From Alphaproteobacteria bacterium (lineage in GTDB: Bacteria > Pseudomonadota > Alphaproteobacteria > UBA828), in NCBI GenBank assembly GCA_963422645.2, contig CAXXVO010000011.1:96001-160000 (forward strand): a stretch of DNA of 64,000 bases, read 5' to 3'. The number at the start of each line of letters is the position of its first letter. Position 1 is the first letter of the stretch. The notes beneath the pieces are model-generated. The model saw nothing but the letters and a program-made list of their open reading frames with translations. It ran no database searches and was not told where the DNA came from. The position numbers and the translations under genes were made by a program. This document shows positions 1,372 through 63,853 of this stretch, piece by piece.

Positions 1372-3890
1372 TTCAGACTTCCTGACCTCGTGATGCTGGC
1401 TGTTCTGGGCAGCGTGCCGGGAACTCCTTGAATTCTGATACATTTCGGTTGTTTCAGGCGGTTTTTCGCTGGGTGTCGCGCCCGAGGTCTGATATTATAA
1501 TTTGATACCAATTGCACGGGGTCTCAACCATGCCCAGTACCCTCCCAATGTGCCCTCCAGAGGCGGTCTCGATCGGCAACAGCTGCTTCGCCGTCCTGAT
1601 CTCGGACGACACCTTCACCTACTTTTCCAACCTCATTCCCTTTGACAGCCACGCCGCCGATGACCGCACGGCCATGCTCTTGCGGATCGGCCGCCTCGCG
1701 GCGATCAGCGCGGTCTCGCCGCAGGAACTGGCTGACGCTTTCGCTGTCTCGCGCGCGACGGTGCAGCGCGCACGACGGCGCTACCTGGCCGAGGGCGAAG
1801 CGGGGTTCATGAAGCCCCGGCGCGGTCGCGGGCCGTCGGTGTTCACTCCGGAGTTGGCGGAGAAGGCGACGGCGTTGCTGGCATCGGGCCTGAGCGGCTC
1901 TGCGGCGGCCCGGGTTCTCGGCGTGTCAGCGCCATCGGTCAACAAGTGGCGCCGTCAGGGACTGATCGGCAACACGGAGGCGGATGGGGAGCCCGGACGC
2001 TCAGCGCTGGCTGCGCCGCCTGACGCGGGTGCGGCTCCTGAAGGCCGTGTCGATGAAGAGAGTACCGGTGCCCCGGGGCCGGAGACGGCGCCGGGGCTGG
2101 AAGCGCAGCCGCAAACGGATCGCAGCGCGCGCGATCGGCGGGACCGGCAGGCGCCGATGGGGCGTGCGACTTGCGATGTTCCGGCTCGGGTTCTGGCCAG
2201 TTGTGGACAGGCGGGGCCGGTCGAACCGCAGTTCGCCGCCGCCGCCCGCGGTGTCCGCTTCGGCGGCGTGCTCGCCGCCCTGCCGGCCCTGCTGAAGGAA
2301 GGTCTTCTCTCCGAGACCGGTCTCCTGCCATTGCTGCCGAAGGGCTATTACGGCTTGCCTACGATCCTGCTCTTCCTGGCCTTCATGACCTTGGCGCGGG
2401 TGCGCAACCCCGAGAGCCTGCGCTACCAGGCGCCGGGCGAATGGGGCGCCATTCTCGGCCTCGATCGCTGCCCCGAGGTCAAGACGCTGCGCCGCAAGAT
2501 CGCTCTCATCGCCGACGACGAGGCCGGCGTGCGGGCGTGGCAGCTCGCCCTTGCCAGGCGCTGGCAGGCGCCGACGAGCCGGAGCTCTGGGCGACGCTGG
2601 CCATCGACGGGCACGTCAAGGTCTACTCCGGCCGCAAGGGGCGCTTGCCCAAGCACTTCGTCTCGCGCGAGAAGCTGTGCCTGCCGGCGAGCGCCAGCTA
2701 CTGGATCAACGCTCTGGGCGGCAAGCCGCTGCTCTGTCTGCACAAGCCGCTGGACCCGAAGATGGTCGCGGCCATCGAAGCCGACGTGGTGCCGGCGCTG
2801 CAGGAGCTTGGGATCGTTGGCGCCGGGGCGCCGGACCTGACCGCCGAGCATCCCGGCCAGCCGGCGCTCACCCTGGTCTTCGACCGCGAGGGCTGGAGCC
2901 CGGATCTGTTCCGCCGGCTGGCGAGGCGCGGCGTCGCCTGCCTGACCTGGCACAAGAACTTCAGGGGCGAGGACTGGCCGGCCGAGGACTTCGGCGCGAT
3001 GACCGTTCCCATTCACGGACCGGCGGCGGACGGCAGCGCCACCATGCGGCTGGCTGAGAAGCCGGTGACGTTGCCGAACGGCTTCAGGGTGCGCCAGATC
3101 CGCCGCCTGCTCGACAACGGCCGTCAGGTGCCGCTGATCACCACCGATCCGCACAAGCCGATGGCTGAGGTTGCGGGCGCCATGTTCTCGCGCTGGTCGC
3201 AGGAGAACTTCTTCAAGTACATGCGTGACGAGTTCAATCTCGACGCCCTGCCGACCCACGAGCTCGAGCCTCTCGATCCCGCCGCCATGGTCGTCAACCC
3301 GCTGCGGCGGGCCTATGACAAGGCAATCCATCGCCTCGACCGCCAGCTTGGCCGCCTGCGCAACCGCATCGCCGACACGGCCCGGAAGAAGCAGCCGACG
3401 GCGGAACTCAGGAGGGAAGTCAGGGACCTCCAGGATGTCCGCGACATCGTCAGGGCCAGCCGCAGGGAGACGCCCAAGCACTGCCGGGCCGGCGACCTCG
3501 ACGAAGCCGAGCAGCTCGATGCCTTGCCCGCGCGCGAGCGCCTCCTCCTCGACGTCATCCGGATGATCGCCTACCGCGCCGAAACCCGCATGATGCTTCC
3601 CGTCATGCAGGCGCAGGGCCACAAGCCCCATCCCCGGAAACTGCTTCAAGCGCTGCTCACCGCCGATGCCGACATCCTGCCGGATCCTGGCAATGGCCTC
3701 CTGCGGGTCCACATTCTTGGCCTCGCAAACGACGCCTGCGACCGTTGGATCGATGCGGTTCTGAGCGACCTGAACGCCACCGAAACGGTCTTCCCCGGCA
3801 CCCGTCTGCGCATAGTCTACGACATCGACGGGGCCTCGGAATCCGCGCGGCTCGTGTCACCTAAAATCAGCAGAGGTCAGGAAGTCTGAA
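1372..3890 (+). mobile_element. insertion sequence, unclassified DDE-type, 18-bp terminal inverted repeats
   Basis: TTCAGACTTCCTGACCTC at 1372 and GAGGTCAGGAAGTCTGAA ending 3890; encloses a transposase; no target duplication visible. Confidence 0.85.
1530..3889 (+). pseudogene. transposase (N-terminal HTH + DDE-like), frameshifted near 2570
   Basis: ORFs 1512-2840 and 2171-3889 join at CAGGCGCCGAC (extra GC); IDGHVKVY, VFDREG, RWSQENFFK motifs; stop lies inside the right IR. Confidence 0.8.
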
Positions 3891-4575
3891 CCTTGGGCGG
3901 AGAAATCGTATCTTCACCCCAATAGTCCAAGTAGCGCTCGACATCGACGTTGCCTATCTTGAACATCATTGTCGGGTTCTGGATGACGCCGTTGTTGCCC
4001 TTGGTCGTGTGCAGACCCATCTTGAAGACGGCATCGGCATCGCCGCTGGCGTCGACGACCCGCTCGGCGCTCACTCTGGTGTAGCCGGACTTGGTGTGGA
4101 GAACGAGACCGGCAAGGGCGTCGTCCGCCATGATCACGTCGATCATCTGGGTATGGTAAAGGGCATCGACACCCGCACTCCGCACCAAATCAGTGGCGAC
4201 TCGCTTGTATGTGGCGCAGTCGTGCGTGACGACCCAGGTCTTGCCGTAGATCTGCGGCCGGGTGACGCCTCCCTCCGCGTCGAGCGCCGCGCGAAAGCGC
4301 TCGGCAAACCCGAAGATGACCTGCTGCGGCTGCGCCATGCGCGGCTCCTCGACCGTCATGTAGAGGCCGCAAACGGTGCCCGACATGCCGGAGACCGCAG
4401 CGCCGCCGCAATAGCCCAGACGCTCGATCAGGAGCGTCTTGTGTCCCAGCTCGGCGGCGGTTGTGGATGCGGCGATCCCGGCAGGGCCGCCACCGACGAC
4501 CACCACGTCGTAGTGGCCGAAGTGGGGCACGTCCTCGAAGGCGGCGGCGCCCAGACGGCCGAGAAACCGCTCCAT
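3891..4575 (-). pseudogene. FAD-dependent oxidoreductase, 3'-truncated by the IS
   Basis: YDVVVVGGGPAG, VVDASGDAD motifs; frame runs into the IS end and no continuation is found on the other side. Confidence 0.8.
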
Positions 4576-10310: not shown

Positions 10311-10493
10311 AGTCTGTCCTCCCTGAGAGTGCGGAGTTGGAATATTACACGTCAATGCGGGCCAGATACATGCTAACGATTAATGGTAACTACCCAGGTA
10401 CCCCGCCGCCAGTTCTGAGTGCGTGCTGATGTTGCTTGCCGTCGGTGCCGTTTCGCCGTCGGCGCGTCGTTGATCCCCGCTTGACTGTATAGG

Positions 10494-10573
10494 TTCAGAC
10501 TTCCTGACCTCTGCTGATTTTAGGTGACACGAGCCGCGCGGATTCCGAGGCCCCGTCGATGTCGTAGACTATG
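10494..10573 (-). mobile_element. 80-bp right-end remnant of the 1372-3890 element
   Basis: exact reverse complement of 3811-3890. Confidence 0.92.
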
Positions 10574-10775
10574 TGTCAATCGGCTTTCAATACTGACCCC
10601 CGATCGGCGTGCAAAATTGCCCCCCCTGAGTGGCACGGCGGAGGTTGTCCCGGTAGCCAATAGGGGGGACCCGCGCGGCTTCGTGTGGCGCCCTGCGCTA
10701 CGCGGAGCGAAGCCGCGTGGGGGGTCCCTGTTGGCCCACCGGGGCAACCGGGCCGCAAGGGAGGCCGGCGGCGGG

Positions 10776-11504
10776 TCAGGAGCGGTTCTTGAAGCGCCAG
10801 CTCTCGTTGCCGGTCTCGATGATCTCGCAATGATGGGTGAGGCGATCGAGCAGCGCTGTGGTCATCTTGGGGTCGCCGAAGACGGATGGCCATTCGCCGA
10901 AGGCGAGGTTTGTGGTGATGACGATCGAGGTGCGCTCGTAGAGCCGGCTCATCAGATGGAAGAGCAGCTGCCCACCGGCCTGGGCGAAGGGCAGGTAGCC
11001 GAGCTCGTCGAGGATGACGAAGTCGCGGCGGACGAGCTGGTCTGCAGTGCGGCCCTGGCGTCCGGCGCGAAGCTCGGCCTCGAGGAGGTTGACCAGGTCG
11101 ACGACGTTGTAGCACCGGCCGCGCGCGCCCTTGCGGATGCAGGACCGCGCGATGGCGACGGCGAGATGGGTCTTGCCGGTACCGGTGCCGCCGACCAGCA
11201 CGATGTTGCGTTTGCCCTCGAGGAAGCCGCCGCCGGCGAGCTCCTGGATCAGGGGCTCGTTGACCGGCGAGGCGGCGAAGTCGAAGTCGGCCAGCTCCTT
11301 GACCGTCGGCAGCTTGGCGGAGGCCATCTGGTACTTGATCGAGCGGGCCCTCTTGTCGGCGATCTCGACCTGCAGCAGCGTACCGATGATCTGTTGCACC
11401 GGATGGCGGCGCTTGAGCCCGTCGGCAAGGATGTCGTCGTAAGCGGCGCGCATACCTGCGAGCTTCAGCTGGGTCATCATCTCCAGCACATCATGACGCT
11501 CCAT
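10776..11504 (-). CDS. istB: IS21 helper ATPase IstB
   Basis: GGTGTGKTH Walker [25 protein letters not shown]. Confidence 0.96.
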
Positions 11505-13007
11505 GACCGGCCTCCCTCAGGCTGTCGTAGCGCTGACAGTCGGCTACCGGCTTGTGGCGAAGCTGCAGGCCCTCGGGCGTCGGGATGATTGCCGGCGGTG
11601 CCGGCTGGCGCTGCCGGGCGAGGATGTTGAGCACCACGTCGGCGCTGCAGGCACCGCAGTCGAGCGTCTCGGCACAGGCCGCCTCAACCGCCTCCAGTCC
11701 GTCCTCCAGCACCGCCGCGAGCACCTTGACGAACTGCCGGTCGCCGTCGTCGTGGCCCGCGAGCCGGGTTCGCAGGCGGCCGAGCGCGTTGGGCAACTGC
11801 CAGTCCTTGAAGGGCGCGCCATTGCGTAGCGCGCCGGGCTTCCGCGTCAGGATCGGCACGTAATGCCACGGATCGTAGACGAACCGGCCGCGCCCGAAGC
11901 TGCGGGGGTGCTCGGCAACGGTCTCGCCGTCCTGGCGGATGACGATCCGATCGGCATAGGCCCGCACGTCCACCGGCCGGCCGACGGCGCGGGCCGCGAC
12001 GCTGTACTGGTTGTTGTCGAAGCGCACCAGACAGGTCTTCGAGACCGACACCTCGCTGGCATGGAAGCCGTCGAAGGGGCCGCGATACGCCATCAGGAAG
12101 GGGGCTGCTCCTCCTCGAACACCTGCCACACCGTCTTGCCCGGGATTGTCGGATGCGGATGCTTCTTGGCGTCCTCGATGCACCGATCCATCAGCCACTC
12201 GTTGATCTCGGCGTAGGAGCGGCCCCGCGGGATGGGCACGAACAGGCGGCCGCGAAGGTCACCCACCTGCTTCTCGACCTGCCCCTTCTCCCAGCCAGCC
12301 CCTGGCGTGCACGCCACAGGCTCCACCAGATGGTGCGAGCACAGCTCCTGGAAGCGGCGGTTGTAGTCCCGCTTCTTGCCCACGAAGATCGTGCTCACCG
12401 CCGTCTTCATGTTGTCGTAGATGCCCCGCCGGCAGACCCCGCCGAAGAAGCGGAAGGCACGCTCGTGCGCCTCGAAGACCATCTCCTGGCTCTCGCGGGG
12501 AAAGATCTGGACCAGATACATCCGGCTGTGGCACAGCCGCATGTGCGCCGCCTTCACCCTGGTCGTCGCGCCCGACAGACGCGCGTACTCGTGGCTCCAG
12601 TCGAACTGGTAGGCCTCGCCGGGATCGAAGATCAGCGGCACATAGGCCTGCGCCGGCGACAACAGCCGCCACCGGCGCCGCCAGGCCCTGGCATAGCGGC
12701 GAACCGCGTCATAGCCGCCCTTGTAGCCCAGCGACACAAGGTCTTCATGAATCCGCAGAAGAGACAGCCGATCCTTGCGTGCCTTCTTCTCGTTGGCCTT
12801 CAGCTGGCGCTCAAGCTCCTCCACCCACAGCCCAAGCTTCGGCATCGGCTGGATCTTGCGCTCGTAGCTGTGCGAGGTCGCATCGCCCCGCACCACCTTG
12901 CGTATCGTGTTCTTGGAAACCCTCAAATCCCGGGCGAGCTTCTTGATCGGAACGCCCTTCACCAGATGATCCCGACGGATCTTCGCGATCGTTTCCACAA
13001 CCAGCAT
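11491..13007 (-). pseudogene. istA: IS21 transposase IstA, frameshifted near 12100
   Basis: PGEAYQFDW, IYDNMKTAV, EKGQVE in the 5' ORF; VRFDNNQYSV in the 3' ORF; shift at G5 run 12100-12104. Confidence 0.9.
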
Positions 13008-13151
13008 CTCCCCCACCACCCCGTCCGTCCAAACGACGAGGTGTGTTCATGGACACAAATCCAAGGGGGTCAATTTTGGACGCCGATCACCCCCAATAGG
13101 GGGTCACTTTTCCACGCTTAACAACACCTTTTCACCCCACAATCCTTCGCA

Positions 13152-14603
13152 ATGACCGCCGTCAAAGCCATTCGGGAATGGGGCCAGGGGTTGCTGCGCC
13201 TGAGCGCGGCCCTGGTCAAGGAGAACGACGCGCTGGAGCGGGAGAACGCCCGCTTGCGCGAGCGGATCGCCGAACTCGAGCGCAGCGCCGCGCTCGACAG
13301 CACCACCAGCTCCAAGCCGCCGGCCAGCGACGGTCTGAAGAAGAAGAGCGGTGACCGGGAGAAGCGCACCCGGAGCCAGCGCGGCAAGTCCGACAGGCCC
13401 AGTGGCGGCCAGCCGGGCCACAAGGGAACTACCCTGGAGCGGACCGCGACGCCCGACCATGTCGTCGATCATGATCCGTCCGCCTGTGAGGGCTGCGGCG
13501 CGCCGCTGTCGGACGCTGACCGTCACGGAGCCCCCGTCTGCCGGCAGGTCTTCGATGTGCCCGAGCCGCAGCCCCTCGAGGTCACCGAACATCGCGGCCA
13601 TCGTTGCCTCTGCGCTGCCTGCGGCACCGTGACGACAGCCGTCTTCCCGAACGGCGTGAGCGCACCGGTCCAATACGGGCCGCGCATCACCGCGTGGGTG
13701 ACCTACCTGCTGCACGCTCAGTTCATTCCCGAGAAGCGGGTCGCCGAGGTCATGAGCGACCTCTTCGCGGTCAAGCTCTCAACAGCCACCATCGTCGCCA
13801 TGGGAAGGCGCACCGCCCGGCGCTTCGAGGGCTTCCTCGATCGCCTCGCGGAGATCATCCGCACCGCAGCCCCAGTCAAACACCTCGACGAGACCGGCAT
13901 CCGCATCGCCGCCCGGACCCATTGGCTCCATGTGCTGTGCACCCCGTTGCTCACCATCCTGCGCGTCGCCACCGGGCGCAGCCACATCGACGAGAAGCTC
14001 AACGGCATCGTCATCCATGACGACTACGCCACCTACTTCGCTCTCGAGGGCGTGCGCCACGGGGCCTGCAACGCCCATCACCTGCGCGAGCTCCAAGCCC
14101 TCATCGAGATCGAGAAGGAAGACTGGGCAACGAGCACGCACCGGCTCCTCATCCGTGCCAACAGAGCCGCCCGCTTCGCCCACAAGAACGACTGCGACGT
14201 GCCCGCCTCACTGGTGGCCCGCATCTCGCGAGCCTGGGACCGCATCCTCGAACGTGCCATCGCCTCTCACGAAGAAATGCCACCGCTCCAGACCGGAAAG
14301 CGCGGACGACAAAAGCGCTGCATCGGTCACAACCTCGCCCTCCGACTCCAGAAGTACAAGGAGGGGTGCCTGCGCTTCCTCACCGATCCGCGAACCCCCT
14401 TCTCCAACAACGAGGCCGAGCGCGACCTCCGAATGGGCAAGCTGCGCCAGAAAATCTCAGGCGGCTTCCGCTCGATACAAGGCGCCCGCGACTTCGCAAA
14501 CCTGCGATCCGTCATCGCCACCGCTCGAAAACAGCGCTGGAATGTCCTCGAAACCCTGGCGCACCCCGATCCAATCCAGCTGATCCCCGTATTGCGCTTC
14601 TGA
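13152..14603 (+). CDS. IS66 transposase (single-ORF type)
   Basis: coiled coil + SSKPPASD, Zn-finger CxxC pairs, HLDETG, HDDY, NNEAERDLR. Confidence 0.95.
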   Translation: MTAVKAIREWGQGLLRLSAALVKENDALERENARLRERIAELERSAALDSTTSSKPPASDGLKKKSGDREKRTRSQRGKSDRPSGGQPGHKGTTLERTATPDHVVDHDPSACEGCGAPLSDADRHGAPVCRQVFDVPEPQPLEVTEHRGHRCLCAACGTVTTAVFPNGVSAPVQYGPRITAWVTYLLHAQFIPEKRVAEVMSDLFAVKLSTATIVAMGRRTARRFEGFLDRLAEIIRTAAPVKHLDETGIRIAARTHWLHVLCTPLLTILRVATGRSHIDEKLNGIVIHDDYATYFALEGVRHGACNAHHLRELQALIEIEKEDWATSTHRLLIRANRAARFAHKNDCDVPASLVARISRAWDRILERAIASHEEMPPLQTGKRGRQKRCIGHNLALRLQKYKEGCLRFLTDPRTPFSNNEAERDLRMGKLRQKISGGFRSIQGARDFANLRSVIATARKQRWNVLETLAHPDPIQLIPVLRF

Positions 14604-14715
14604 AATCCTGCGCTGCTCCGGGAAAGCGCCGCCTGACCCCTGGCTGGTCAGAACCATCAATCCATCACGTCCGAGTGCTCGGCAGAATCAGACCTGGGCA
14701 GTTACGATTAATGAT

Positions 14716-15743
14716 GGCTCAATTCGTGAATCGTATGCATTGTGATAGAATCCTTCCCGGTTCGCCTTGGAGGTCAGGCAGATGGATCACGAGCGGTTTC
14801 GGGACTGGTTCTCGCGTGTCGATGAGTTGACGGCGGCGCAGCGCAAGGAGGTCGGGGCGGTGCTGTCGGAGCCTCCGGAGGGCGCGGCCTCGCTGGCGGC
14901 GATCGAGCTGGGCGTGGATGACGAGCGGCGCTGTCCGCATTGCGGCGCAGGCGGGGCGGTGTCGCGGGGCACAAGGCGCGAGGTCTTCGCCGCTTCCGGT
15001 GCAAGGACTGCGGGAAGACCTTCGGTGCACTCACGGGCACGGCGCTGTCAGGGCTGCACCACAAGGAGCGCTGGCTGGCCTTCGGCGCCTCGCTTGCCGA
15101 GGGCGAGACGATCAAGGAGTCCGCCGAGCGCTGCGGGATTGCGCCGAGCACGGCGCATCGCTGGCGCCACCGCTTCCTGGCGGCGGTTCGGCAAGCGCCG
15201 GACCGGCTTGCCGGGATTGTCGAGGCCGACGAGACCTTCGTTCTCGAGAGCCGCAAGGGGGAGCGGAAGCTGGATCGCAAGCCGCGCCGTCGCGGCGGCA
15301 AGGCCCGCAAACGCGGCCTCTCGCGCGAGCAGGTGCCGATCCTGGTCGCCGCCGACCGTGCGGGCGAGACCCTCAGCCATAGCCTGCCCGCCCTCAACGC
15401 AAAGAGCGTGAAGGAGGTGCTGGAGCCGGTCGCAGCGGATGCGCTGCTCGTCTCCGACGCCAAGCGCTGCTATCCGCCCGTCGCGGCGGCGCTCGACATA
15501 CCTCACGAGAGCATCAACGCTTCTGCTGGCGAGCGGGTCCGGGGCGCGCTGCACATCCAGACGGTCAATAGCCGCCACAGCCAGATCAAGGGCTTCCTGC
15601 GCGGCTTCCGCGGCATCGCCACCAAGTACCTGGACAGCTATCTGAGGTGGTTCCATCTCATCGAACTCGGCGATCAGCCATCGCCCAGAGCGTGCCTCGA
15701 GGCGGCGATGGCCAGACCGCGCCTACGCTTTGCGAATTGAGCC
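14716..15743 (+). mobile_element. IS1595-family element
   Basis: IRs GGCTCAATTCG / CGAATTGAGCC; 8-bp TSD TTAATGAT. Confidence 0.93.
14782..15740 (+). pseudogene. IS1595 transposase, frameshifted near 14971
   Basis: CPHC...CKDC Zn ribbon split across frames; VEADETF, LVSDA, HIQTVN, GIATKYL. Confidence 0.88.
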
Positions 15744-45875: not shown

Positions 45876-45961
45876 GGGCTTTTCCTCCCCCGAACGGTTG
45901 CAGGCGGGGCGGAAACACCTCTGGAATCCGCCCCGATCCACATCTGCGGGAGGAAAAAGAA

Positions 45962-46019
45962 GGCTCAATTCGTGAATCGTAGGCGTCGTGGTAGAATCTT
46001 TCCGGATTCGCCCTGGAGG
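45962..46019 (+). mobile_element. IS1595 left-end remnant
   Basis: diverged copy of 14716-14773. Confidence 0.85.
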
Positions 46020-46132
46020 TGTCAACGCCGGATGAAGATTCGGCCAGAGGGCGGCGCAAGAGACTGCCACTCTGGGTGATGCGTGGTTGTGACGGTTTTT
46101 CGGCGGGCGCGGTCCGTGGAGCCATCCAGAGC
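46020..46132 (+). mobile_element. probable IS21-type end remnant
   Basis: begins TGTCAACGCCGGATGAAGATTCGGCCA, resembling IS21 termini. Confidence 0.45.
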
Positions 46133-47618: not shown

Positions 47619-47941
47619 ATGAGAAGATCTCAGGCGGCTTCCGCTCCCTGCAAGGCGCCTGCAACTTCGCCGGAATGCGCAGCGTCATCGTCACCGCTCG
47701 AAAGCAAGGCTGGAACATCCTGCAAATCCTGGCGCACCCGGAACCGATGCAGCTGATCCCTATACTGCGCTCCTGAACTTCTCCGGCTCATCCTGAGTAT
47801 CGCTGTCCTCTCATCTTGTTCGCGACGCGGCGTTCATCATCCTCTCGCGCTCAAGAGAGTAGGCACCCCCGCGGCGTGGGGGCGTTGACGCAAAAGGAAC
47901 TGGCTTGTTCCATAAGAGAGAGGGGGTACCTGGGCAGTTAC
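47619..47941 (+). mobile_element. diverged IS66 3' remnant
   Basis: KISGGFRSLQGA...TARKQGWN to 47776; right IR ACCTGGGCAGTTAC. Confidence 0.88.
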
Positions 47942-60802: not shown

Positions 60803-61029
60803 AGGCCTGCCCCGGCGCCGGGCGGCGCCGGGCTCAGACGATCGCGCTCAGGCGGCCCGCGCCGGCTTTAGCGATTCGTAACTACCCAGGTACCCCGCCG
60901 CCAGTTCTGAGTGCGTGCTGATGTTGCTTGCCGTCGGTGCCGTTTCGCCGTCGGCGCGTCGTTGATCCCCGCTTGACTGTATAGGTTCTCTCGCCTATGG
61001 GTTGCACTCTCGCATGAGAGGAGCAGCCG

Positions 61030-61698
61030 GTGGGGTATTTCGGGTCGAAGGCGACGACCGGTCTGAGCCAGGCGCTGATTGCGCTGATGCCGCGGCACTC
61101 TGTCTATATCGAGAGCCATCTTGGGGGCGGGGCGCTGATGAAGCGCAAGCCTGCGGCCATGCGCTCGATCGGGATCGACCGCGACGAGCGGGCGCTTGAG
61201 GCCTTTGGCTGCGACTACCCGGTGGAGTTGGTGCACGGCTGCGCCCATTCCTTCCTGGCCTCGTTCCCGTTTCTGGGCCCGGAGCTGGTCTACAGCGATC
61301 CGCCCTATCTGCACGCGACCCGGCGTTCGTCGCAGCGCTACCGCTTCGAGTACGAGGAGGCCGACCACGTCGCGCTCCTCGAACTGCTCAAGGGTCTGCC
61401 CTGCCAGGTGATGGTCTCGGGCCACCCGTCTGCGCTCTATGACGAGCTGCTGGCGGGCTGGCGCCGGCTGGCGCTGCAGGTGACGACCCAGGCCCAGGTG
61501 CGGACCGAGGTCGTGTGGTTCAACTTCGCGCCTGACCGGGTGCACTGGGCGAGCTTCGCCGGCCGGAACTTCACCGAGCGCCAGTGCATCAAGCGCAAGG
61601 CGGCCAACTGGGGCCGGCGCTACGAGGCCATGCCGGCGGGCGAACGCCTGGCGGTGCTGGCCGCGATCATGGCCGTCGAGGCCGACGAGGGTTCGTGA
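61030..61698 (+). CDS. Dam-like (D12 class) DNA adenine methyltransferase
   Basis: GYFGSK, YIESHLGGG, IGID, VYSDPPY; GGAG RBS before GTG. Confidence 0.88.
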   Translation: MGYFGSKATTGLSQALIALMPRHSVYIESHLGGGALMKRKPAAMRSIGIDRDERALEAFGCDYPVELVHGCAHSFLASFPFLGPELVYSDPPYLHATRRSSQRYRFEYEEADHVALLELLKGLPCQVMVSGHPSALYDELLAGWRRLALQVTTQAQVRTEVVWFNFAPDRVHWASFAGRNFTERQCIKRKAANWGRRYEAMPAGERLAVLAAIMAVEADEGS

Positions 61699-63236
61699 CA
61701 GTGTCGCGCTGGCACGAGGACCTCGCTGCCCACGACGAGGCCTTCGCGTGCCTGCAGGACCTTTTCACCCCACAATCCTTCGCAATGACCGCCGTCAAAG
61801 CCATTCGGGAATGGGGCCAGAGGTTGCTGCGCCTGAGCGCGGCCCTGGTCAAGGAGAACGACGCGCTGGAGCGGGAGAACGCCCGCTTGCGCGAGCGGAT
61901 CGCCGAACTCGAGCGCAGCGCCGCGCTCGACAGCACCACCAGCTCCAAGCCGCCGGCCAGCGACGGTCTGAAGAAGAAGAGCGGTGACCGGGAGAAGCGC
62001 ACCCGGAGCCAGCGCGGCAAGTCCGACAGGCCCAGTGGCGGCCAGCCGGGCCACAAGGGAACTACCCTGGAGCGGACCGCGACGCCCGACCATGTCGTCG
62101 ATCATGATCCGTCCGCCTGTGAGGGCTGCGGCGCGCCGCTGTCGGACGCTGACCGTCACGGAGCCCCCGTCTGCCGGCAGGTCTTCGATGTGCCCGAGCC
62201 GCAGCCCCTCGAGGTCACCGAACATCGCGGCCATCGTTGCCTCTGCGCTGCCTGCGGCACCGTGACGACAGCCGTCTTCCCGAACGGCGTGAGCGCACCG
62301 GTCCAATACGGGCCGCGCATCACCGCGTGGGTGACCTACCTGCTGCACGCTCAGTTCATTCCCGAGAAGCGGGTCGCCGAGGTCATGAGCGACCTCTTCG
62401 CGGTCAAGCTCTCAACAGCCACCATCGTCGCCATGGGAAGGCGCACCGCCCGGCGCTTCGAGGGCTTCCTCGATCGCCTCGCGGAGATCATCCGCACCGC
62501 AGCCCCAGTCAAACACCTCGACGAGACCGGCATCCGCATCGCCGCCCGGACCCATTGGCTCCATGTGCTGTGCACCCCGTTGCTCACCATCCTGCGCGTC
62601 GCCACCGGGCGCAGCCACATCGACGAGAAGCTCAACGGCATCGTCATCCATGACGACTACGCCACCTACTTCGCTCTCGAGGGCGTGCGCCACGGGGCCT
62701 GCAACGCCCATCACCTGCGCGAGCTCCAAGCCCTCATCGAGATCGAGAAGGAAGACTGGGCAACGAGCACGCACCGGCTCCTCATCCGTGCCAACAGAGC
62801 CGCCCGCTTCGCCCACAAGAACGACCGCGACGTGCCCGCCTCACTGGTGGCCCGCATCTCGCGAGCCTGGGACCGCATCCTCGAACGTGCCATCGCCTCT
62901 CACGAAGAAATGCCACCGCTCCAGACCGGAAAGCGCGGACGACAAAAGCGCCGCATCGGTCACAACCTCGCCCTCCGACTCCAGAAGTACAAGGAGGGGT
63001 GCCTGCGCTTCCTCACCGATCCGCGAACCCCCTTCTCCAACAACGAGGCCGAGCGCGACCTCCGAATGGGCAAGCTGCGCCAGAAAATCTCAGGCGGCTT
63101 CCGCTCGATACAAGGCGCCCGCGACTTCGCAAACCTGCGATCCGTCATCGCCACCGCTCGAAAACAGCGCTGGAATGTCCTCGAAACCCTGGCGCACCCC
63201 GATCCAATCCAGCTGATCCCCGTATTGCGCTTCTGA
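61695..63236 (+). CDS. IS66 transposase (start GTG 61695 or ATG 61785)
   Basis: nearly identical to 13152-14603. Confidence 0.94.
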   Translation: MTVSRWHEDLAAHDEAFACLQDLFTPQSFAMTAVKAIREWGQRLLRLSAALVKENDALERENARLRERIAELERSAALDSTTSSKPPASDGLKKKSGDREKRTRSQRGKSDRPSGGQPGHKGTTLERTATPDHVVDHDPSACEGCGAPLSDADRHGAPVCRQVFDVPEPQPLEVTEHRGHRCLCAACGTVTTAVFPNGVSAPVQYGPRITAWVTYLLHAQFIPEKRVAEVMSDLFAVKLSTATIVAMGRRTARRFEGFLDRLAEIIRTAAPVKHLDETGIRIAARTHWLHVLCTPLLTILRVATGRSHIDEKLNGIVIHDDYATYFALEGVRHGACNAHHLRELQALIEIEKEDWATSTHRLLIRANRAARFAHKNDRDVPASLVARISRAWDRILERAIASHEEMPPLQTGKRGRQKRRIGHNLALRLQKYKEGCLRFLTDPRTPFSNNEAERDLRMGKLRQKISGGFRSIQGARDFANLRSVIATARKQRWNVLETLAHPDPIQLIPVLRF

Positions 63237-63334
63237 AATCCTGCGCTGCTCCGGGAAAGCGCCGCCTGACCCCTGGCTGGTCAGAACCATCAATCCATCA
63301 CGTCCGAGTGCTCGGCAGAATCAGACCTGGGCAG

Positions 63335-63853
63335 TTACAGCGATTCAATGTGGGCAAGCATGGTGTCTGCGTCGGAGACCTCGAAGGGATCTCCCGCCGC
63401 GTTGTCGCAAAGTCCCGGCTCCACGAACATCTTCGTGATCTCGCCGTCCTCGACCAGCATGGAATAGCGCCAGCTGCGCAGGCCGAATCCGAGATTGTCC
63501 TTGTCCACGAGCATGCCCATGCGCCGCGTGAAGGTGCCGCAGCCGTCCGGCAACAGGGTGACGTGCTCGGCCCCTTGATGCTTGCCCCACTGGTGCATGA
63601 CGAAGGCGTCGTTCACCGAGAGGCAAATGACCTCGTCGATGCCGGCGTCCCTGAAGCAATCGTGCAGGGCTTCGTAGCCGGGCAAGTGGGTGCTGCTGCA
63701 GGTCGGCGTGAAGGCGCCCGGCAGCGCGAACACCACCACACGCCGGCCGGCGAAAATCTCGGCGCTGGTCCGGTCCTGCCAACGGAAGGGGTTCGGCCCC
63801 TCGACGCTCTCGTCACGAACGCGGGTCTTGAATGTCACCTCTGGTACACGCAT
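63335..63853 (-). CDS. peroxiredoxin (Prx5/AhpC-TSA type), last codons clipped by IS66
   Basis: [28 protein letters not shown]. Confidence 0.94.

Follow-up and report, generated by a model that had tools for sequence, protein, structure and literature searches.

The DNA analyzed here, a 64,000-nt stretch referred to as the window (GCA_963422645.2, contig CAXXVO010000011.1, positions 96,001–160,000; coordinates below are those of the window), contains at 60878–63338 an intact, 2,461-bp insertion sequence (IS) of the IS66 family, in which the gene upstream of the transposase, ORF1, encodes a protein with the predicted fold of Dam-type adenine methylases. The element is delimited by terminal inverted repeats (IRs), of which the left one (60878–60893, plus strand) starts with GTAACTACCCAGGT and the right one (63323–63338, minus strand) reads GTAACTGCCCAGGT as the reverse complement, so that 13 of the 14 outermost bases agree, and by an 8-bp target-site duplication, AGCGATTC, found at 60870–60877 and again directly past the right end at 63339–63346. 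A gene for a XerC-like recombinase lies on one side and a 185-aa open reading frame (ORF) on the opposite strand on the other. Within the element, on the plus strand, a promoter-like block (60973–61001), whose position is kept in relatives, comprises a −35 hexamer TTGACT (60973–60978), a 17-nt spacer and a −10 hexamer TATGGG (60996–61001), and encloses a palindrome, TATAG-N10-CTATG (60980–60999), which is a candidate operator and/or methylation site. It is followed by a leader inverted repeat (61004–61024, plus strand; arms CTCTC at 61007–61011 and GAGAG at 61016–61020) that overlaps the Shine-Dalgarno sequence GGAG (61020–61023), by ORF1 itself (61030–61698, plus strand; 222 aa, Upf31-like) and by the gene for the 513-aa transposase (61695–63236, plus strand). 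The two genes share the tetranucleotide GTGA (61695–61698, plus strand), in which the stop codon of ORF1 overlaps the start codon of the transposase; the GTG is in frame with the transposase, whose similarity to its relatives begins at residue 1, and the junction is kept across high-GC lineages, an arrangement that suggests translational coupling via the overlap. The original prediction had described the clean IRs with the 8-bp duplication, the 222-aa ORF with S-adenosylmethionine (SAM)-binding and DPPY motifs and the GTGA overlap, and all of these descriptions were borne out.

The transposase belongs to the IS66 DDE type, with DUF6444, zf-IS66-like and DDE_Tnp_IS66 regions (NF033517: 1.4e-84, 284.5 bits, cut-off 180; PF03050: 2.8e-38), and this, together with the IRs and the 8-bp duplication, places the element in the IS66 family. 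In three-gene members of the family, tnpA and tnpB precede the transposase gene. Neither accessory gene was found here: from the left IR to the transposase gene, ORF1 is the sole ORF, and it matches methylase families and none of the IS66 accessory families. The element is therefore assigned to the single-transposase IS66 subgroup, presumably the one called ISBst12-type, with which it shares the DDE transposase, DUF6444, the zinc-finger region, the 8-bp duplication, the IRs and the lack of tnpA/tnpB, and from which it differs by the addition of ORF1 with its own promoter, by the GTGA overlap and by about 800 bp of extra length. The nearest plasmid relatives of the transposase (45–47% identical) come from single-gene IS66 elements that have neither ORF1 nor tnpA/tnpB. 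As a non-transposition gene lies within the IRs and moves with the element, the latter also corresponds to a "transporter IS", the term for insertion sequences with passenger genes. In the RNA-library runs, which contain only 7–13% of the sampled words and are uninformative where they give no coverage, one contig spans the junction between ORF1 and the transposase (61595–61827); because carry-over of DNA is possible, it lends weak support to a single transcript.

The ORF1 protein exhibits a SAM-binding motif I (ESHLGGGA) and a catalytic SDPPY motif (DPPY at residues 90–93). It does not reach the curated thresholds set for the Dam families (PF02086: 15.6 bits versus 22; TIGR00571: 27.1 versus 114.85), with alignments that cover the DPPY half only, and it matches phage DNA-methyltransferase families (phrog_56: 4.6e-20; phrog_1996: 3.1e-14). 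The AlphaFold2 model, built on 62 relatives, has a mean pLDDT of 93.3, and its best structural matches in the PDB are DpnM, E. coli Dam, Mcbe1 and T4 Dam (TM 0.48–0.56). The ORF1 profile aligns with residues 16–78 and 184–267 of DpnM and with nothing between them, so that the Dam target-recognition domain of ~100 residues is absent from ORF1; in the model just 40 residues lead from the IGIDRD segment (motif II in our reading) to DPPY. Hence, in comparison with the methylases of the Dam/D12 class (E. coli Dam, DpnM, T4 Dam), the protein retains the Rossmann fold, the N-terminal G-x-K, motif I and DPPY, but from motif III to DPPY it has no recognition domain, and it possesses a C-terminal helical hairpin instead (residues 181–221). 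Both the hairpin and the catalytic and SAM-binding motifs are kept in all 16 aligned IS-linked ORF1 sequences. The fold is thus of the Dam type, and the target-recognition domain of Dam is missing: the original prediction was right in considering the enzyme short and devoid of a full recognition domain, and its term "Dam-like" applies to the fold only, not to membership in the curated Dam families.

The host genome (5.9 Mb in 23 contigs, 67% G+C) contains 14 full-length copies of the element, which are 97.3–100% identical and all start at the same left-end base. Distinct perfect 8-bp duplications flank 11 of them, both ORFs are open in 12, and ORF1 is located inside the IRs in each of the 14. 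The element has been mobile recently and ORF1 is an integral part of it, as had been proposed from the window. Three of the 14 copies have no matching duplications; where two copies were compared (G000 C15:4379–6839 versus C11:32097–34557), one flank of the former turned out to be the duplication of the latter, which suggests recombination between them. A sister lineage of the same layout, with ~82% DNA identity, is present in dozens of copies, and the host genome as a whole holds, in these two lineages, 75 full-length copies of ORF1 (24 at 95–100% identity and 51 at 86–89%), of which 73 are free of stop codons. ORF1 is under purifying selection, the dN/dS check called for by the original prediction giving values of 0.08–0.33 in all 19 between-lineage pairs. 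Decay or loss of the gene in other copies of the element was not seen, as the copies without ORF1 are those truncated by other insertions.

One such case is the second copy in the window (10386–14705, plus strand), which has its own 8-bp duplication, GATTAATG, at 10378–10385 and 14706–14713, the whole feature spanning 10378–14713. Positions 1–111 of the element correspond to 10386–10496 and positions 882–2461 to 13126–14705; positions 112–881, with the −10 hexamer, the leader and the entire ORF1, have given way to a filler of 2,629 nt (10497–13125), in which ~76 nt of a 2.5-kb mobile element come first and an IS21-family element (IstB at 10776–11504, split IstA) second. The original prediction had taken this copy as evidence that the unit moved recently. 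The shared left end of 111 nt and the three substitutions in the transposase (R>G, R>C, R>C) are indeed there, but because the nested insertions have replaced ORF1, it is not a second methylase-bearing unit.

Searches with the ORF1 protein identified 2,873 relatives of similar length (E ≤ 0.001), the best 120 of which, those listed, are at least 69% identical, as well as 5,949 relatives among 50%-identity representatives and at least 559 related stretches in a metagenome scan; some of the relatives are named "DNA adenine methylase" in their source annotation. On plasmids, the relatives stay under 60% identity and occur as stand-alone backbone genes that have no transposase partner; of the 198 plasmids with such a gene, 134 are conjugative. 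Close relatives (68–98% identical) were surveyed at 80 loci from 24 species-representative assemblies, labelled as seven phyla, although short IS contigs may be mis-binned. An IS66 transposase lies directly downstream of ORF1 at 71 of these loci, and the remaining nine comprise six with a transposase of the IS701 family (NF049999, 309 bits), one with an IS66 transposase stub that another element has cut and two remnants. The six IS701-type elements, from three assemblies, are ~2,784 bp long, with IRs of their own, CTCGACTTTGTACATTT, that are unlike those of the IS66 element, and with 5-bp CTNAG duplications in six of six; their ORF1 is 80–85% identical and has the same promoter. Further IS701 cases are the loci L120, L163 and L135. 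A second survey, of 80 metagenome loci against a panel of transposases, found IS66 downstream at 64 and IS701 at one; among the 15 without a panel match, six have less than 300 nt of downstream sequence, two resemble IS701 (one scores under the curated cut-off, the other match is partial), one is linked to ISKra4, one precedes an N-glycosylase-like ORF and five are unassigned. At L178 the gene behind the ORF1 cassette is an ISKra4 transposase (274 bits versus 205), an element known by its transposase and with putative ends.

Even where the transposase is of the IS66 type, in several lineages an ORF1 69–75% identical to that of the window is followed by a transposase only 27–31% identical. In a quick tree of 112 distinct sequences (identical rows dropped, four plasmid proteins as the outgroup), the IS-linked proteins group in one clade, the branch to which is long (0.88, SH-aLRT 99), and within which the IS701-linked ORF1s appear in at least three places among the IS66-linked ones and the ISKra4-linked ORF1 stands beside an IS66-linked one. 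As judged from the sequences, the cassette is re-used by the unrelated transposase families IS66, IS701 and ISKra4. Two further candidate partnerships were rejected: coupling to an IS630 transposase at L097, since L097 and L098 share 826 bp (the IS66 left end and ORF1) that do not include the IS630 gene, and the proximity of a Sphingobium plasmid relative to an IS1380 transposase, which is coincidental, the neighbours differing in two sister plasmids. At L180 (3501–5027) a palindrome-bearing cassette precedes an ORF resembling N-glycosylase/DNA lyase (NF002305, 2.8e-20, below cut-off), with no transposase there. At L038–L047, from one Alphaproteobacteria assembly, the transposase frame is the ORF1 frame continued across a single TGA and matches in three pieces, which may represent decaying copies or a read-through arrangement.

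What accompanies ORF1 in every lineage, the IS701 and ISKra4 cases included, is the upstream block TTGAC-N3-(C/T)ATAG-N10-CTAT(G), at a constant distance from the palindrome to the start codon of ORF1. Of the 156 loci in which the N-terminus and no fewer than 90 nt ahead of it are available, 154 have the loose anchor TTKAC-N3-NTAG. Among 93 distinct 27-mers, the right half, left unconstrained by this anchor, reads C in 89, T in 91, A in 93, T in 79 and G in 75; the half-sites hardly vary, and no column of the N10 between them carries more than 0.5 bit. TTGAC and TAT(G)nn would serve as −35 and −10 elements with a 17-nt spacer, and in low-GC relatives TTGACA-17-TATGCT is the sole promoter called in the element (10/12; L122), the scan of L122 revealing no other promoter-like site. 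Three features depart from the sigma-70 consensus, namely the ATAG within the spacer, the C just ahead of the −10 and the G that is the fourth base of the latter. They mirror each other as a 20-bp palindrome, which occurs 80 times in the host genome, namely 77 times in ORF1 promoters, twice in promoter remnants and once elsewhere, against an expectation from base composition of ~3 per orientation. The results for the leader inverted repeat, which lies downstream of the −10 and ahead of the start codon and whose arms vary between lineages, depend on how the leader is cut: the untrimmed fold energies of 89 distinct leaders are significant, with a median z of −1.99 relative to mononucleotide shuffles (42 of 89 below −2), those of leaders trimmed to the assumed transcript start are not unusual (median z 0.35, 1 of 89 below −2), and RNAalifold predicted no pairs in a set of 22 leaders.

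A clue to the function of ORF1 comes from the sole studied relative, Upf31 of the plasmid pBP136, which was itself a hit of the plasmid search and to which it is 43% identical over residues 1–220 (E = 4e-62), with the size, the motifs, including DPPY and motif I, and the C-terminal domain in common. According to the report on this IncP-1beta plasmid protein (Elg et al., Mol Biol Evol 2025, PMC11997246; bioRxiv 10.1101/2024.02.05.579024), Upf31 represses its own promoter ~50-fold (xylE from 4.76 to 0.09 units), the repression needs the C-terminal domain, and the candidate operators are inverted repeats at that promoter. The same report describes no GATC methylation in restriction digests and no modification detectable by SMRT (single-molecule real-time) sequencing in methylation-free E. 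coli, the SMRT strain having carried the expression vector only; it places the homologues mostly on IncP-1beta plasmids, and the terms transposase and insertion sequence occur in it 0 times (PMC11997246). As in the ORF1 promoter, the inverted repeat of the Upf31 promoter adjoins a TTGAC −35 element. Upf31 differs in being a stand-alone backbone gene without a transposase partner, while ORF1 heads the transposase gene.

We therefore consider it probable, though not by a wide measure, that the element carries a portable autoregulatory cassette that sets the expression of the transposase, the parts of which, as far as can be read from sequence, are a sigma-70-type promoter with a palindrome, a leader repeat and a Dam-fold protein, with the transposase directly behind. 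ORF1 and the transposase would be transcribed from the one promoter upstream of ORF1, and the ORF1 protein would bind the palindrome, probably as a dimer, and repress the operon, so that more copies of the element would yield more ORF1 protein and less transposase, i.e. a copy-number-dependent control. We infer the repression step by analogy with the behaviour of Upf31 at its own promoter; the operon model as a whole draws, in addition, on the palindrome, the fixed position of ORF1, the GTGA overlap and the absence of another promoter. Among the roles suggested by the original prediction, regulation of the element's own promoter would accordingly fit best, given the conserved palindrome in the promoter of ORF1. 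An IS-encoded repressor of transposition is known in InsA of IS1. Like repressors of that type, the ORF1 protein would be the product of a small upstream gene that binds its own promoter and limits the transposase in trans; unlike them, i.e. helix-turn-helix or zinc-finger proteins that bind within IRs, it has a methylase fold and a putative site outside the IR, and its cassette is common to unrelated IS families.

Several observations speak against such a repressor and have to be set beside the evidence for it. The link to Upf31 is an analogy based on 43% identity, and the operator proposed for Upf31 (inverted CAGCATCG) is unlike the palindrome of ORF1. The promoter scan called no promoter in the window copy, in which the −10 reads TATGGG. 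The right half-site and the −10 share bases, so that promoter constraint accounts for some of the conservation of this half, and the centres of the half-sites are 15 bp apart, a spacing unusual for a simple dimeric repressor. Covariation of the half-sites is weak: a change in both halves, to GTAG...CTAC, occurs in four distinct sequences and a change in one half in five, and because the GTAG...CTAC sequences lie in two tree clades (L128/L192 and L189/L190), they represent at most about two events. The presence of ~75 ORF1 copies in one genome is unlike a tight control of copy number. Finally, D90, P91 and P92 are invariant in the 62 relatives (37–87% identity), and Y93, E28, G32, G34 and K7 reach 90% conservation or more, a conservation of catalytic residues that a pure repressor model leaves unexplained. 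The homodimer prediction for ORF1 (score 0.31, against a mark of 0.42) was weighed neither way on dimerization.

The catalytic residues would have their explanation if ORF1 were an element-borne N6-adenine methylase that acts on the palindrome of its own promoter, in which case the signal would be the methylation state of the adenines in or beside the −10 (full, hemi or none) and not the occupancy by a repressor. Such a self-targeted epigenetic switch seems to us unlikely, yet not to be neglected, and we give no better chance to its consequence, namely that the transposase would be gated by replication, through hemimethylation, and by copy number, in a cassette captured by IS66, IS701 and ISKra4 elements. 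Control of this kind has a precedent, as host Dam regulates IS10/Tn10 and IS50/Tn5 via a GATC sequence in the promoter of the transposase gene. Transposase expression could likewise be tied to replication here if the promoter contained a methylatable site, with the difference that the enzyme would be an element-borne Dam-fold protein instead of that of the host and the putative site a 20-bp palindrome instead of GATC. In favour of the switch are the catalytic and SAM-binding motifs, (near-)invariant in the 62 relatives and in 16 of 16 IS-linked sequences, the Dam fold, predicted with high confidence, the adenines in both half-sites and their overlap with the −10, and the near-confinement of the site to IS promoters in the host genome. 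Against it, Upf31 keeps DPPY, yet no methylation was reported for it under the tested conditions; moreover, the target adenine cannot be named and the Dam recognition domain is missing. A private target could reconcile the switch with the negative SMRT result for Upf31, obtained in a strain with the expression vector only, and a genome-wide motif caller would miss such a site because the palindrome is nearly confined to IS promoters.

More doubtful still is the view closest to the original prediction, that ORF1 is an orphan adenine methylase of the ordinary kind, with a target site that is short or relaxed, which acts chromosome-wide to shield DNA from restriction or to alter the methylome. 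The matches to phrog_56 and phrog_1996, the relatives annotated as DNA adenine methylases, the prevalence of conjugative plasmids among those that carry a relative, the conserved motifs and the lack of a recognizable target-recognition domain would all agree with it. However, the data on Upf31 record neither GATC nor SMRT-detectable methylation and portray an autorepressor, which makes a low-specificity methylase with effects on the host methylome or restriction questionable; protection from restriction would be of no obvious gain to an IS, as an IS cannot enter cells alone; and both the constant linkage to the palindrome and the same-orientation slot upstream of the transposase would go unexplained.

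Two further possibilities merit little credence. Insertion sequences with passenger genes are known, and the plasmid relatives of ORF1 stand alone, but that ORF1 is a hitch-hiker, i.e. selfish cargo with no role in transposition, is very improbable in view of its fixed position and orientation, overlapping or abutting the transposase start, the lack of another promoter-like site in the element (L122), the repeated uptake by unrelated transposase families, the 73 intact copies out of 75 and the purifying selection. It is just as hard to believe that ORF1, which occupies the slot of tnpA/tnpB in three-gene IS66 elements and is probably co-expressed with the transposase, replaces TnpA/TnpB as a cofactor that binds or marks the terminal repeats, since the half-sites of the palindrome are absent from the IRs, an 80–85% identical protein serves IS701-type elements with unrelated IRs, and the nearest IS66 relatives, being single-gene elements, apparently transpose with the transposase alone; the idea of the original prediction that the methylase regulates the ends of the element is doubtful for the first two of these reasons.

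The host genome in general is extremely rich in insertion sequences. The 2.5-kb element, part of which is found in the disrupted copy, is 2,512 bp long at full length (G000:C10:125349–127860, L199) and has 16-bp IRs, CAGACTTCCTGACCTC, as well as one large ORF that is frameshifted and matched no NCBIfam transposase family beyond an N-terminal helix-turn-helix. It is inserted at positions 106–111 of the IS66 element, i.e. in the N10 spacer of the palindrome, in at least six copies and in both orientations. The possibility that it is a specialist parasite of the cassette was rejected, as it has 67 full-length copies genome-wide; because its sites often read TAG...CTA throughout the genome, the insertions in the spacer reflect a target preference. 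A further copy of the end of the 2.5-kb element lies 6.6 kb away in the opposite orientation, seen as an 83-nt perfect inverted repeat (3811–3893 versus 10491–10573). The IS21-family element nested in the 2.5-kb element (10573–13125; IstB at 10776–11504, IstA ORFs at 11491–12198 and 12093–13019) has ~67 near-full-length copies in the genome at 99.5–100% identity. Directly to the right of the disrupted IS66 copy is a transposase of the IS1595 family (14940–15740), and a 65-nt repeat, 85% identical, links 14710–14774 with 45956–46020. A third, more distant lineage of IS66-type transposases (in the window at 47622–47785), which matches over the C-terminal 160 nt only, at 79%, is very abundant and occurs at ~100 sites in the genome.

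In the full-text literature we found no published description of an IS66, IS701 or ISKra4 element with this gene, a search that did not extend to ISfinder and REBASE; the conserved palindrome promoter and the sharing of the cassette with IS701 and ISKra4 are new with respect to the original prediction. The self-limitation of insertion sequences is understood for few model elements, in which it depends on factors of the host, Dam for example. In the present case, a ready-made control cassette, consisting of a promoter, a palindrome, a leader repeat and a Dam-fold protein, appears to have been exchanged among unrelated transposase families. It offers a simple system in which to ask if a methylase fold has turned into a DNA-binding regulator or if the protein is a methylase with a very long private target. 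If the epigenetic switch were true, these would be the first insertion sequences with a Dam-type control of their own instead of that of the host, and the apparent inactivity of Upf31 in a genome without its site would be explained. Thousands of genes annotated as "DNA adenine methylase" may be regulators of transposition, and the counts of orphan methylases in metagenomes may be distorted as a result.

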